Virus record (IMG/VR): IMGVR_UViG_3300023371_000071
From: a virus
Lineage: Duplodnaviria > Heunggongvirae > Uroviricota > Caudoviricetes
Strand: one strand, 5' to 3'
DNA: 64,000 bases
Every line of letters begins with the position of its first letter. The first letter of the stretch is position 1. Of this stretch, positions 18,300 through 25,345 are shown one piece after another. A model generated the notes under the pieces. That model made no database searches. It was not told where the DNA came from and worked only from the letters and a program-made list of their open reading frames with translations. The translations under genes were made by a program, and so were the position numbers.

Positions 18300-18322
18300 G
18301 CTTATTCCTCCTTAAAAAAAGA

Positions 18323-18349
18323 AGAGGGTTGTTTATTACAACCCTCTTT
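18323..18349 (-). terminator. Rho-independent terminator ending the rSAM/Tyr-rich operon
   Basis: AAGAGGGTTGT-ttatt-ACAACCCTCTT hairpin with a T7 run on the minus strand. Confidence 0.65.
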
Positions 18350-18352
18350 ACA

Positions 18353-18667
18353 TTATTCAACAATCTTCTTTAAGCGAAGATTTACTTCACGACGGTCAAT
18401 TTCTTCATTCATGGTATCAAACAAAGTATCAATCTTGAAATTATCAACCACATCGTACAAGAGCTCACCGTTCTTATCAAAAACATGTACAGCCTTAATA
18501 GTGATACCAACATAAGACTTAATATCTTCGATGGTGTCTGCAAGACTAGCTGCTGTGTTATCAAGGTAGCAGTTAAAATCATTGCCGAGCTCGCCATTTT
18601 CAATATGGCTATAATTTACGCTACGAACGTCATAACGTGTTGCAGAATCGTTGAAACTAATAAACAT
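18353..18667 (-). CDS. Hypothetical protein (last gene of the rSAM operon)
   Basis: 104-aa ORF with TAA stop and a terminator immediately downstream. Confidence 0.4.
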   Translation of the reverse strand: MFISFNDSATRYDVRSVNYSHIENGELGNDFNCYLDNTAASLADTIEDIKSYVGITIKAVHVFDKNGELLYDVVDNFKIDTLFDTMNEEIDRREVNLRLKKIVE

Positions 18668-18683
18668 GTTTTATTCTCTCCTT

Positions 18684-19364
18684 TTAGTTTGCTGGTGGAG
18701 GTGGTGGAGGCGGGGGAGGATTACATCCACACTCCTCGGGTTTACTTCCATTCCAATCAGAGTTTTTTGGCCCTTCCTCAGGCTTTACTAAACCAAGCGC
18801 AGTTAAATAAGTTTGAGAAAGGCGAAGAGAAGCAGGACGAGACTGACGCCAAGATCTGAGTTCTTTAACAATGCTAGAAGAAGCTTGCATTAATTCAAGA
18901 TAACCAGCGCCCATTTGTGCCAATGTATATGTTGGCGCAAGAGTGTCTTGAATCAAACCAATGCGCTGGGCAATAGTCTGACTACGTTCATCTTCTGGAC
19001 CATTAGACAATTTAAAGTCTAAATAGTTACCAAATACAGAGCAATATTGATGAACAATCGCGCACCAGGCACTCATAAAATCATTCCAGGGAAGCTTATC
19101 CTCAGTAAGAATAAGAGTTGGAAATTCATGTTCAATACGAATGAACATGTCTAAAGTGTCCTGAGAAATTGTAAATGCACCATCGTCCTCTCCCGGTTCC
19201 CAAGCTGTGATGGCATCAATTTGCTCCAATACTCTAATCATAATTAATGAAAGTTGCGGCTGAATGGCTGTTAAAATACGACCAATAGGACCCAAAGTAT
19301 CAATTTCTTTCATCACATGATAGCGGGCCTCGCCATAAGAAAAATTACGAATTTCAGTTAACAT
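18684..19364 (-). CDS. Hypothetical protein with C-terminal Cys-Gly-Cys plus poly-proline tail (CGCNPPPPPPPPPAN)
   Basis: 226-aa ORF overlapping the rSAM-2 stop by 11 nt. The C-terminus is encoded by a G-rich tract at about 18690-18730. Confidence 0.45.
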   Translation of the reverse strand: MLTEIRNFSYGEARYHVMKEIDTLGPIGRILTAIQPQLSLIMIRVLEQIDAITAWEPGEDDGAFTISQDTLDMFIRIEHEFPTLILTEDKLPWNDFMSAWCAIVHQYCSVFGNYLDFKLSNGPEDERSQTIAQRIGLIQDTLAPTYTLAQMGAGYLELMQASSSIVKELRSWRQSRPASLRLSQTYLTALGLVKPEEGPKNSDWNGSKPEECGCNPPPPPPPPPAN

Positions 19365-22133: not shown

Positions 22134-22154
22134 ATCTCCGTTTTCTCCTCTCGC

Positions 22155-23648
22155 TTAATTCGAGTAATTTCTTGAATAATAATTACTAGTATAATTACCA
22201 GTTTTATTGCCAGAATTATATGTAGAATAGTTACCAGACTTATAAGTGGTATGATAACCTGTCTTATAGCTAGTATAATCCGCGGTATCATAACTATGAT
22301 TGGTGCCATTATGAGAACTCTTGGCGCCACTGTCATTAGAAGAATAATAACTTCCATGATGGGAGGTATAATCCGCGCTATCATAGCTATAATTACTCGT
22401 TTTATAAGTTGTATAATGCGTTTTTGCGCTTGCATTATAACCACCATGATTACTTGTGTAATCTGCACTATCGTGAGAATATTTTCCACCATAGTGAGTA
22501 GTATAATTTGCGCCTTTTGCAGATGCATTATAAGTAGCAAAATTGCTGCCATTATATCCGGCATAATGAGTGTACTTTCCACTGTTATATCCAGTATAAT
22601 CTCCACCATTAGCAGATGCGTAATATGAGCCTTTGTGCGTAGCATAGTTTGTGCTATGATAGGCATAATTACCACCATTGTGGACGGAATAATGTGCATT
22701 TGCTGTTGTATAATATCCGCCAAAATTATTAGTATTATAAGAACTTAAGTGACCAACTTTTTCACTCTAATAATGTGTACTATTATGACCAGATTTATGT
22801 GTAATATAATATGTTTCATAATGAGCAGTATTTTGCCCAGTATAATGATTAACATAATAAGAAGTTTTTACTGTGGCATTATAATTAGTATAGTTTGCAG
22901 TATCATAAGTTACATAATGAGTAGTATAATATGTGGCATTATTTGAAGTATTGTAGCCTGCATAATGGCTATATTTTTGCGCACCATTATGTGTATCAAA
23001 TTCAGTACTAAATTGATTACCAAAATGATCTGGACAATGTGAAGTATTATAAATTTGATAGTGCGTAGTATAATAATTAGTATAATACGCTTTATGGTTA
23101 CTACTATAATCCGCAGACTTATGAAGACGATTGCCCGTATAATAAGTTCCATGGAACTAATAATGAGCACTCTTATACGTTACATAATTTGTTGTATTAT
23201 GTTCATAATTTCCACCAAAATAAGAATAATAATGAGTACCATTATGAGTAGTATAATAATCTGCATAATGATTCGTATAATAACTTGCATTATGACCATA
23301 TCGATGACTGTTAAAATACTCAGTATAATAAGAATTATGCCAAGCTGTCCAGTTATTAATATCATATCCGGTATAATAATTTACTAAATGCCCTGTATAA
23401 TAAGCATCATTATATCCAGATTTATGACCTGATTTATAAGATGAAAGATGCCCGTTATAATATGTACCTTTTTCACCATTGTGATGGGTAGCATAATGTC
23501 CACTATAATGTGAACTTAAATGTCCGCTCAAGTGCCCTGAATAATATGCAGGGCAATGAGCAGCTTCTTGGGCCTAAATTGCAGTTAATGGATTATTTAA
23601 GTCAGAAGGAATAATTTTATTTCCTTTGACTGCTGTTGAAGTCGCCAT
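22155..23648 (-). CDS. Tyr/Ser/Thr/Asn/His/Gly-rich low-complexity tandem-repeat protein 2 (about 497 aa), with 3 in-frame TAGs
   Basis: ATG at 23646-48 with AAAGGAGG 9 nt upstream. Frame-continuous through TAGs at 23574, 23157 and 22768 to a TAA at 22155. Sequence of the type '...GHLSSHYSGHYATHHNGEKGTYYNGHLSSYKSGH...' with no aliphatic residues. The antisense and off-frame ORFs in the ORF track are I/M/V-rich mirror images. Confidence 0.6.
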
Positions 23649-25060
23649 TGTGGATTATTCCTCCTTTTTATTAAGTTACAGTAACATTATGCGATTTATT
23701 ACCAGCACGATAAGCGGTATAATTAGAAGTATTATAAGTGCCATAATTAGCAGTATAATAACCTGTCTTATAATTACTATGGTTACCACTATTATAACCA
23801 CTCCAGTGAGAATTACGAGCAGCATTTTGACCACTATTATAAGAGCTATCATGTCCACTCTTATTACCTGAATAATGACCACTATTATATCCGCTCCAGT
23901 GAGAACGCTGTGCAGTTAAATTAGAGTTATTATATGTTGCATAGTTACCGCTTAAATGACTTGTATAATAACCACTATTATAACCACTCCAATGATTATT
24001 ATAAGTGGAATAATTTGAACCATTATGACTGGTGTAATGACCACTTAAATGTCCTGTATAATTACCATTATTTTCAGAGCTTCTATGAGAAGTATATACA
24101 GTCTTATTATGATTAGTGTAATGCGTAGCATAATAACCACTTAAATGCCCTGTATAATCACCTGCATTGTGAGATACATAATGAGCTCTATAACCAGTTT
24201 GATATCCCATATTATGACTAGAATATCGTCCTGTATAATGAGTAGTATAATTATTACTATTATAAGTTGAATAATGATTATTTTTTCCTGTGTATTGAGC
24301 AGTATAATTAGAGCTTAAATAGCCAGAATTGTATCCAGTATAATTAGCTGCATCACGACTAGTGTATTGAGTACCATTATGCCCTGAATAATGCGTTTTT
24401 TGTCCTGCTTTATTTGTACTATTATAGGTCGAATAATGAGTTGTATAATTAGTAGTTTTTGCTCCACTATTATAGGTGGAATAATGAGAGCTTCTGTGAG
24501 CATAATCATATGTTTCAAAATGACTATCATAAGCAACAGCACGGTGAGATTTTGCTCCAATATGATAAGTGGTATATTGAGTACCGTAATAGCCAGTATA
24601 ATGACTATTTTGATTAGTATAATGACTATAATAATAATTATTATAATTAGTACTCTTATAAGAACTATCATGTGAACTATAATAACCACTATAATATTCT
24701 GCATTATGACTTTCAAATTCTGCCGCTCTATGATAAAAATGACTTTTTTCAGTAGTATTGCGAGTTGTATAATGAGTTGCATAATAAGTAGCATTTCTAC
24801 CGCTGTAATGTGGAGCAAAATACGTATTATAATGAGCTTCACGATGAGCAGAATAATAAATACCACATGCTGCCCAGTTATCAAAATATTGCCAATTACT
24901 ATGATGAGATCCATAGAAATCGGAATTATGAGTTGTATAATAGCTACTATAATGACTACTCTTATAACTACTTTCTCTGCCGCTATAATATGTTGCATTA
25001 TATGAAGTATATTGTGTTGCATAAACCGTAGATTTATGCGCATTTAAATATCCTGCATTA
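22155..25060 (-). repeat. Degenerate coding tandem repeats (TAT/TAC-, AGT/TCT-, CAT-, AAT-rich) spanning both Tyr-rich genes
   Basis: About 2.9 kb of extreme low complexity. All three frames on both strands stay open except at TAG. Repeat unit roughly 5-8 codons of the form x-Y-x-[ST]-[GN]-H. Confidence 0.7.
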
Positions 25061-25287
25061 TAAGCGGCACAACCGTAATTGATAGAACCAGCTTGGCTAT
25101 CAATAACATCCGATAATTCTTTAGGCGAATTATAATTTAATTTAGAATTATAAACTGCAATAGGATCATGTTGCCAATTATATTTGGCTAAACCCAATTT
25201 ATCAGTTCTAAAATTATCAATTCGATTTCGAACTAATAAATAATCAGAATATGCAGTTTTCTAACCCGTTGAAACTGGTACCGCCAT
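23671..25287 (-). CDS. Tyr/Ser/Thr/Asn/His/Gly-rich low-complexity tandem-repeat protein 1 (about 538 aa), with 1 in-frame TAG
   Basis: ATG at 25285-87 with AAGGAGGG 6 nt upstream. TAG at 25261. Non-repetitive N-terminus of about 85 aa ('MAVPVSTGQKTAYSDYLLVRNRIDNFRTDKLGLAKYNWQHDP...'), then [S/G/T/N]-Y-x-[S/T/G]-H-type repeats. TAA stop. Confidence 0.65.
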
Positions 25288-25316
25288 TCGTTCGCCCTCC
25301 TTTATCTCTATAAAAT

Positions 25317-25345
25317 ATTATAACAAAAATTTTTATCTATGTCAA
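25317..25345 (-). promoter_or_regulatory. Consensus sigma70-type promoter (TTGACA-17-TATAAT) driving the Tyr-rich/rSAM operon
   Basis: On the minus strand: TTGACA (reverse complement of 25340-45), an exact 17-nt spacer, TATAAT (reverse complement of 25317-22). The ribosome-binding site and ATG of Tyr-rich gene 1 lie about 25 nt downstream. Confidence 0.55.

Follow-up and report, generated by a model that had tools for sequence, protein, structure and literature searches.

A phage gene cassette pairing two radical-SAM enzymes with two tyrosine-rich repeat proteins: a candidate protein-scale maturation system

The window analysed here, the whole 64,000-nucleotide stretch of an uncultivated phage of the class Caudoviricetes (IMG/VR record IMGVR_UViG_3300023371_000071), contains a cassette of six genes in which two proteins with tyrosine (Tyr)-rich repeats are encoded beside two radical S-adenosylmethionine (radical-SAM) enzymes. 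As a preliminary description of the same DNA had proposed, all six genes lie on the minus strand, overlapping or closely spaced, between a promoter and two terminators. The leading genes encode the putative type-A precursor YA (23671-25287; 538 aa) and the putative type-B precursor YB (22155-23648; 497 aa), preceded by GGAGG and AAGGAGG ribosome-binding sites, respectively; these lengths hold when TAG is read as glutamine (Gln), at codon 9 of YA and at codons 25, 164 and 294 of YB. These are followed by rSAM1 (20721-22133; 470 aa), a radical-SAM enzyme with the motif C28-x3-C32-x2-C35, and by rSAM2 (19354-20742; 462 aa), a radical-SAM/SPASM enzyme whose gene overlaps that of rSAM1 by 22 nt. 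Two accessory proteins complete the set: p226 (18684-19364; 11 nt of overlap with rSAM2), ending in ECGCN-P9-AN, the CGCN-Pro9 tail noted at the outset, and the small protein p104 (18353-18667), present in closer relatives. Overall, the cassette is probably best explained, from comparison of sequences, as an undescribed phage-borne system in which radical-SAM enzymes modify repeat proteins.

The transcription signals of the cassette are well defined. The promoter (25317-25345, minus strand) is of the consensus sigma-70/sigma-A type, TTGACA-17-TGtTATAAT, matches at 12/12 positions and has an extended -10 TG. It is, as first read, a TTGACA-17-TATAAT promoter, and the sole perfect site of this kind within 17-27 kb of the window; a scan at a lax threshold gave 44 sites against 47 in shuffled sequence, so that the perfect site alone stands out. 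The two bracketing terminators were likewise recovered as hairpins. One (25350-25379, minus strand; 12-bp stem with 6 GC pairs, T-run) lies at the end of the upstream tail-fibre gene, and the other (18322-18348, minus strand; 11-bp stem, T-run) ends the cassette just upstream of a SpoIID-type lysin gene. The layout of terminator, promoter, cassette and terminator was found again in four related contigs (L102, L105, L001 and L086). L102, L105 and L001 have almost the same promoter 29-mer, although synonymous divergence (dS) in coding sequence there is about 1 or more, and both hairpins keep their position in all four contigs, with stems that differ in sequence yet still pair through compensatory differences. 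The phage, in which TAG is recoded to Gln, carries the cassette as an autonomous transcription unit.

This recoding extends well beyond the cassette. When TAG is read through, several minus-strand open reading frames (ORFs) open to 910-2172 codons with 4-24 in-frame TAGs each, and the whole late region (minus strand, 14,600-64,000) is open only with TAG as a sense codon, including 18 in-frame TAGs in 51367-57381 and 24 in 57481-63999; the plus-strand replication-type block at 1-14,000 has none. TAG encodes Gln in the window, because homologues from recoded contigs have it in columns where Gln is otherwise invariant (65/65, 61/65 and 57/65). The Tyr-rich genes are thus intact, TAG being a sense codon in this phage; the standard code leaves a single Tyr-rich ORF of 508 aa and pieces of another, along with the two radical-SAM ORFs and those of 226 and 104 aa. 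No tRNA gene, suppressor tRNA included, was found in the 64-kb window. Within the cassette, TAGs are confined to the precursors (4/1035 codons against 0/1262 codons of rSAM1, rSAM2, p226 and p104), and a TAG lies within the first 40 codons in 12 of 14 precursors of recoded relatives; such early TAGs could hold back precursor synthesis until a suppressor is active. Confinement of TAG to precursors was dropped as a general rule, since the radical-SAM genes of relatives contain TAGs too.

YA and YB are real genes under purifying selection. Synonymous divergence from the closest relative, L102 (rSAM1 91% identical), is about 1 with almost no indel, and the ratio of nonsynonymous to synonymous divergence (dN/dS) is 0.12 for both YA and YB, compared with 0.02-0.04 for the radical-SAM genes and 0.02-0.08 for the four non-Tyr-rich genes overall. 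The reading frame is preserved across indels, and each gene is preceded by a strong ribosome-binding site. Comparison of closer clades shows core lengths that differ by about 100 aa and core identity down to about 40%, the radical-SAM enzymes still being 81-82% identical. ORFs rich in Ile, Leu, Val and Met in other frames (minus strand, 24315-25043 and 22130-22723; several plus-strand ORFs in 22.1-25.1 kb) were considered and rejected as genes. The alternative Ile/Leu/Val-rich frames over YA and YB contain interrupting TAA and TGA stops and arise as shadows of the periodicity of TAT/CAT/AAT/AGT-rich codons.

In composition, the two proteins are much alike: YA has 91 Tyr, 44 His, 76 Ser, 64 Asn, 59 Thr and 43 Gly, and YB has 92 Tyr, 47 His, 58 Ser, 58 Asn, 63 Thr and 46 Gly, with two Cys in each. 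The Tyr counts are below the 120 or so per protein given initially. The initial likening of this composition to FUS-like domains and to spore coats has the standing of an analogy. Aliphatic residues (Ile, Leu, Val or Met) are scarce in the cores rather than absent, as had been stated (14 of 453 residues in YA, 16 of 464 in YB), and Lys plus Arg number 26 against 16 Asp plus Glu in YA and 23 against 21 in YB. The core is repetitive, as described, but the proposed [S/T/G/N]-Y-x-[S/T]-H-like unit gives way to a strict four-residue square wave, [H/Y/N]-[Y/N/K]-[S/T/A]-[G/S/T], with about 113 such tetrads in YA and about 116 in YB. The autocorrelation of Ser/Thr/Gly/Ala, negative at lag 2 (-0.69) and positive at lag 4 (+0.66), gives a nearly perfect two-on/two-off wave, and phase tracking fits 91-92% of residues to the tetrad with 10-11 slips. 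Position 1 is occupied by His (37), Tyr (34-39) or Asn (16-21), position 2 by Tyr (46-48), Asn (22-27) or Lys (9-17), position 3 by Ser, Thr or Ala, and position 4 by Gly, Thr or Ser. A weaker super-period of 8 residues is also present (His autocorrelation 0.24 at lag 8). A tandem-repeat search of the DNA found only short arrays of 12 and 24 nt; the periodicity is old, degenerate and maintained, and not the product of recent slippage or expansion. Motifs of the type [HYWF]-x-[STA] are enriched in the cores (91 in YA and 84 in YB, compared with 47 +/- 4.6 in shuffles), and H-x-S, counted 20 and 13 times, falls inside the broader (H/Y)-x-(S/T/A) tetrad. A single-sequence AlphaFold2 (AF2) model of YA residues 10-538 has no fold (mean predicted confidence, pLDDT, 32), which is weakly consistent with disorder. 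Neither protein, nor its leader, matches Pfam, NCBIfam or PHROGs, and no peptidoglycan-binding domain, signal peptide, Cys-x3-Asp/Glu repeat, Val-Gly repeat or sulfatase motif ([CS]x[PA]xR) was found in YA or YB.

Both proteins begin with a non-repetitive segment, which had been suggested to act as a leader. In YA, this segment comprises about 85 aa in two units and ends in ...INYGC; in YB, it comprises about 30 aa in one unit and ends in ...AAHCP, a junction kept in 9 related loci. The suggestion is borne out in so far as such N-termini are conserved and end in Cys, in the window's clade by pattern alignment. Type-A precursors have two leader units and type-B precursors one, and the final unit ends in Cys; in a gut clade, the ends are ...TGC... 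(type A) and ...HCP... (type B). A profile hidden Markov model (HMM) of the one-unit leader, built from environmental loci, has the pattern M-A-F-x-W ... G ... I ... E-I-R-x-N-x-D ... C and matches 80 ORFs in 45 loci, with exactly two matches in 35 of them. The 75 distinct precursors are 83-566 aa long (median 165), with cores of 15-531 aa that are hypervariable behind the conserved leaders. In distant loci, these cores are built of HDSSHKSS, pure HxS, HLSGHLSG, NSYGDSNAR, TNTACNHGNRGHSTQ, NSTVRSAY, HLSGHLSGYLSS or Asp/Gly/Tyr-rich units. Precursors of about 470-540 aa with eight-residue, Val-containing repeats (NSTVRSAY and similar) occur in L156, L121, L132 and other JGI loci, and one such core gave a faint, non-significant match to the triple beta-helix domain of T4 gp5 (E 0.31). 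Second junction-like Cys motifs occur inside the cores of the window's proteins, namely HCPD at YB residues 204-207 (about 23030-23039) and AACG at YA residues 139-142 (about 24862-24873); they resemble the leader/core junctions HCPA and YGCAA, and the giant precursors may have come about when precursor cores fused or were duplicated. A conserved leader together with a hypervariable core and maturases alongside is the signature of precursors of peptides that are made by the ribosome and modified after translation (RiPPs). The family displays this combination, the window's own clade by pattern alone; an RRE (PqqD-like) domain, a leader peptidase and an exporter were sought in the cassette and not found.

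By motif and profile, both enzymes belong to the radical-SAM superfamily. The CxxxCxxC cysteines of rSAM1 (C28/C32/C35) are invariant or nearly so among homologues and the protein scores 32.4 bits with Pfam PF04055 (cut-off 29.5); those of rSAM2 (C56/C60/C63) are invariant, and this protein reaches 24.9 bits, just under the PF04055 cut-off, and is matched by PHROG and NCBIfam radical-SAM models. The two are distant paralogues (hhalign probability 95%, 18% identity). SPASM cysteines had been ascribed to both enzymes, which holds for one of them. Across 37 homologues, rSAM2 has seven invariant C-terminal Cys (C320, C338, C383, C386, C392, C396 and C415), including CxxCx5Cx3C, and the SPASM model TIGR04085 matches 34 of the 37 family members, so rSAM2 is a full canonical SPASM enzyme. 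In rSAM1, only three C-terminal Cys are invariant (C311, C329 and C418); it looks twitch-like, a pattern that fits a single auxiliary cluster and not a full SPASM domain. The best NCBIfam match of rSAM1 is PapB, with 49 bits against a cut-off of 340, and PapB is the top curated model for all 70 homologues scanned (E down to 1e-17), followed by weak matches to QhpD, SCIFF, nif11, YhhB, DynA, anSME and HxsB; for both enzyme families, the best-scoring models are thus those of maturases of peptides or proteins. Because all curated scores are far under their cut-offs (25-49 bits for the window's enzymes against 170-855), rSAM1 and rSAM2 are orthologues neither of anSME, NrdG or QueE nor of any other named family. 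Among PDB profiles, rSAM1 matches ChlB (9gm3) best, then 8vpo, anSME and CteB, and rSAM2 matches 8vpo, CteB (5wgg) and ChlB, in each case over the core region only. A PADLOC scan found nothing beyond generic, viperin-level radical-SAM similarity.

The p226 family sits after rSAM2 in most loci and shares a C-terminal motif, SRPxSLRLSxxYLxxLG (FSPxxFxLSxxYLxxL in distant members); the CGCN-Pro9 tail is restricted to the nearest relatives. The AF2 model of p226 is a helical bundle over residues 10-150 (pLDDT about 80), with low confidence over the conserved motif, and no match was found in Pfam, NCBIfam or PHROGs. For p104, searches of Pfam, NCBIfam, PHROGs and the PDB gave no match, and its alignment is conserved among closer relatives only.

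The co-occurrence of Tyr-rich ORFs and radical-SAM genes, which had been proposed as a check, extends far beyond this phage. The module, consisting of one or more precursors, rSAM1, rSAM2, a helical protein of about 200 aa and usually a protein of about 100 aa, was found on ENA, Logan, IMG/VR and JGI contigs, dozens of which are phage-like. There are 73 homologues of rSAM1 and 404 of rSAM2, all from metagenome assemblies and on contigs of up to 275 kb; a search of 1.84 billion representatives with the rSAM2 profile gave 374 clusters (at 50% identity) with E<=1e-30. In the scan of viral contigs, relatives were retrieved by an alignment query and not by a single-protein query. Gene order in L102-L105, L001, L005, L086 and L109 is tail fibre, two Tyr/His/Ser/Asn proteins, rSAM1, rSAM2, the two accessory genes and lysin, with precursors of 539/497, 441/400, 364/286, 269/244 and 568 aa. 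L003, a 275-kb contig with other neighbours and an rSAM1 of 37% identity, has two precursors of 137 and 108 aa. The enzyme pair persists in more distant IMG/VR and JGI loci, where identity falls to about 25-40%: an rSAM1-type ORF lies directly upstream of rSAM2 in 35 of the 41 JGI environmental loci with enough flank, and the precursors lie downstream of the enzymes in L095 and L169. In L096 (IMG/VR 3300013426_000019), five radical-SAM ORFs follow one another at 8887-15866, and the locus also encodes a protein of 255 aa that has pure His-x-Ser repeats at either end. Among cultured phages (INPHARED), the module was not found by DNA or protein search with the cassette and rSAM1, and rSAM2 gave a weak core match alone, in a Pseudomonas jumbo phage. 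Among the 185,579 GTDB species genomes, no cultured host genome has the module, the best matches (about 27% identity) being in contigs of metagenome-assembled genomes. No paper describing the system or a phage-encoded version of it was found. The first impression that this is not a described phage system is therefore upheld: the family is widespread, undescribed and phage-borne.

Around the cassette, the minus strand carries a tail-fibre gene of at least 1252 aa upstream (29905-25568), and a SpoIID/SH3/peptidoglycan-binding lysin (18311-16329) and a holin (15974-15558; phrog_13712, E 9e-32) downstream. The C-terminal module of the tail fibre (...AVWNDYAEFR ... GRIWIKVR; 25568-26100) is common to otherwise different fibres (7800-8307 in L001, 9000-9357 in L092), and fibres with this module lie directly upstream of the cassette. 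Elsewhere in the window, a 2437-aa ORF at 33105-40439 is free of TAG, and its L001 homologue has LRR_5. The plus-strand block encodes, by eye, a DnaE-like polymerase and a class III (anaerobic) ribonucleotide reductase (4296-8189, 9004-11268); in related contigs, a small Fer4_12/Radical_SAM gene lies nearby, which fits a strictly anaerobic host.

The recurring association of precursors, rSAM1, rSAM2 and accessory genes supports a radical-SAM maturation system, and it is quite likely that rSAM1 and rSAM2 act on YA and YB. The central idea of the preliminary description, radical-SAM maturation of protein-sized, leader-bearing substrates, thus gains support from linkage, leaders, enzyme class and selection. 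In the mechanism that we propose, YA and YB would be ribosomal precursors whose two-unit and one-unit leaders, ending in an invariant Cys, precede a disordered core of about 115 tetrads. The leaders would recruit both radical-SAM enzymes, probably with p226 as an adaptor in the part otherwise taken by HxsD (of the HXS system discussed below) or an RRE domain. rSAM2, with its full SPASM domain, and rSAM1, with one auxiliary cluster, would then act on the repeats over and over, modifying them by means of 5'-deoxyadenosyl radicals. In the cross-link, which may be of the three-residue cyclophane type, the ring of the His or Tyr at position 1 would be joined by a C-C bond to the beta-carbon of a Ser, Thr or Ala at position 3; a further reaction may take place at the junction Cys. 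Cyclophane-type chemistry is favoured because the tetrads match the aromatic-x-X3 geometry of triceptides; we regard it, tentatively, as the most likely chemistry, other possibilities being a junction-Cys thioether, epimerisation and Ser oxidation. Synthesis would take place in the anaerobic host during infection, and the product would either form a fibre-like virion appendage or be released at lysis. As neither a protease nor an exporter is encoded in the cassette, and the host cells undergo lysis, this product is probably a full-length, heavily stapled, protease-resistant protein. It could be a fibre of the virion, an adhesive or a scaffold inside the cell, or it could act in exclusion or anti-defence; a structural or material role is conceivable at less than even confidence. 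Rather doubtful is a new kind of biomaterial, a protein-scale poly-cyclophane, that is, a disordered Tyr/His-rich protein given around a hundred side-chain cross-links per chain by a radical-SAM pair, in phages of anaerobes and with TAG-delayed synthesis; it would serve the phage in an appendage of the virion, for adhesion, or within the cell as a scaffold or barrier.

Several observations weigh against modification of YA and YB by these enzymes. The case for it rests entirely on comparative genomics, which has established the structure and recoding of the genes, the selection on them, the class of the enzymes, the conserved linkage and the leader/core architecture. The leader HMM, even when iterated, misses the window's own clade and reaches only L003 (E 1e-7 and 0.007), so that the proposed homology of the YA and YB leaders to the environmental ones depends on pattern alignment and enzyme phylogeny. 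Similarity of the enzymes to characterised proteins (PDB, NCBIfam) is largely limited to the radical-SAM core, and the cyclophane-family models YhhB, XyeB, FxsB, GrrM and AmcB give about 24-30 bits against cut-offs of 310-450. An RRE domain, which had been proposed as a further check, was not found in either enzyme; the cluster motif is preceded by just 27 residues in rSAM1 and 55 in rSAM2, which leaves no room for an N-terminal one. The candidate adaptor p226 is a generic helical bundle. In 7 and 16 tetrads, position 3 is taken by Gly, a residue without a beta-carbon. Phage fibre proteins, too, typically combine a conserved N-terminus and a variable C-terminus.

This last point leads to the possibility that YA and YB are ordinary virion fibres, for instance trimeric beta-helical proteins with a 4/8-residue period, whose N-termini dock to the tail, the radical-SAM enzymes acting elsewhere or at the junction Cys alone. 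The position of the cassette, directly after a tail-fibre gene and before lysis genes, would suit such a role, as would the 8-residue super-period of His, the 24-nt DNA repeats and, faintly, the non-significant gp5 match of the environmental Val-octad cores. We nevertheless consider it improbable. The leader pattern tracks the radical-SAM pair across phages with differing structural genes and neighbourhoods, including L003 and L095, where no tail-fibre gene is adjacent, which argues that the enzymes recognise the leader and that it does not serve virion docking. Furthermore, some precursors measure only 83-110 aa, two precursors match two radical-SAM enzymes, and the single-sequence AF2 run shows no fold. 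Far less probable still is that the enzymes are of housekeeping type (anSME-, NrdG- or QueE-like) or that the Tyr-rich ORFs are shadows of low-complexity DNA. Such orthology, named beforehand as an outcome that would refute the proposal, is contradicted by scores far under cut-offs: anSME does appear among the weak matches, but with 33.9 bits against 349 (TIGR03942), and YA and YB lack the sulfatase motif. The second Tyr-rich ORF is indeed broken three times under the standard code; TAG is a Gln codon, however, and the low dN/dS at a dS of about 1, the in-frame indels, the strong ribosome-binding sites and the TAA and TGA stops in the alternative frames refute the shadow explanation.

A third alternative takes its model from HXS, an antiphage system in which two radical-SAM enzymes, HxsB and HxsC, together with HxsD mature HxsA (PMC13128918, Li et al. 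2026); HxsA carries five HxS repeats and prevents phage DNA from entering (PMC13128918). The cassette could be a phage counterpart of this defence, its repeat proteins serving as a barrier in superinfection exclusion or as an anti-defence decoy and not as structural material. The parallel in architecture (two adjacent radical-SAM enzymes, a small partner and a substrate with (H/Y)-x-S repeats) speaks for this (PMC13128918), as do the pure HxS or HxSS repeats of L095 and L096, the matches of 19 of 37 rSAM2 homologues to the HxsB model (best E 7e-9), and the moron-like character of a cassette with its own consensus host-type promoter and terminators. The HxsB cut-off is never reached, however, and the HxsC, HxsD and HxsA models have no match among the cassette proteins. 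YA and YB have neither a peptidoglycan-binding domain nor a signal peptide, and their charge is not strongly basic; the hosts, judging from the SpoIID/PG_binding lysin, are probably Gram-positive and so without a periplasm; and the need for TAG suppression points to late expression of the precursors. On balance, such a counterpart is unlikely, and modification of the repeat proteins by the radical-SAM pair is the explanation that we prefer.

If this explanation is correct, part of its interest lies in scale. The substrates for which radical-SAM maturases are known are peptides that offer a few sites for modification. Here, the combination of leader, repeat core and adjacent SPASM enzymes seems to extend continuously from peptides of 83 aa to proteins of about 570 aa with some 115 repeats. 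The cassette would then represent a phage-borne branch of RiPP-like biochemistry, carried by viruses and not by bacteria, with enzymes able to staple long disordered proteins repeatedly, and it would give a function to a gene family that is unnamed in public protein-family libraries.

Among known systems, QhpD and anSME are SPASM enzymes able to modify whole proteins; YA and YB differ from anSME substrates in having no sulfatase motif. PapB, which makes ranthipeptides, is the top model for the cassette enzymes, but reaches at most about 50-60 bits against 340, and the Cys-x3-Asp/Glu repeats are absent from YA and YB. TvgB, which forms poly-cyclopropylglycine on TVGG repeats (PMC9062424), also targets a four-residue repeat, but YA and YB contain no Val-Gly repeats. 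The closest chemical analogy appears to be with the triceptide synthases, or enzymes that form three-residue cyclophanes (3-CyFEs: ChlB, HaaB, HtkB, XyeB, YhhB, GrrM/OscB and FxsB), which are radical-SAM/SPASM enzymes acting on repeated aromatic-x-X3 motifs. ChlB acts on a Tyr-Asp-Arg motif, and enzymes that link the ring of His or Tyr to the beta-carbon of Ala, Lys or Arg have been characterised, for example those forming His-x-Ala and His-x-Lys cyclophanes (PMC11499958). At position 1, triceptide synthases accept Tyr or His, and at position 3 they take small residues (PMC11499958); the tetrads likewise offer His or Tyr at the former and Ser, Thr or Ala at the latter. In their aromatic-x-X3 motifs, YA and YB thus resemble triceptide precursors, whereas rSAM1 and rSAM2 do not belong to the cyclophane-forming families. 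In addition, known triceptide precursors are peptides with one to few motifs, in contrast to some 90 candidate motifs in about 500 aa, and the cassette enzymes are paired, rSAM1 lacking the full set of SPASM Cys.

In architecture, the closest analogue is HXS, which was overlooked in the preliminary list of analogues (PMC13128918). Both systems have two adjacent radical-SAM enzymes with a small non-enzymatic partner and, as substrate, a protein with tandem (His/aromatic)-x-Ser repeats and an N-terminal part distinct from them; literal HxS repeats occur in distant members of the phage family. The differences are equally clear. Compared with the NCBIfam models TIGR03976-03979 (HxsB, TIGR03978; HxsC, TIGR03977), the phage enzymes are no orthologues of HxsB or HxsC, the HxsB match covering only the core motif and reaching 25.6 bits where the cut-off is 370, so the cassette falls outside HXS by its enzymes, as it does for want of an HxsA-type substrate and an HxsD partner. 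It has two substrates with about 115 repeats each, instead of one with five, and these are without the peptidoglycan-binding domain. Gene order is also unlike, and the cassette resides in phages of anaerobes, whereas HXS is found in Proteobacteria. If the proposed modification takes place, the cassette would be a viral mirror image of this bacterial defence system; as matters stand, the description that suits it best is that of a new variant, borne by phages, on the theme of repeat-targeting radical-SAM maturases, at the scale of whole proteins.

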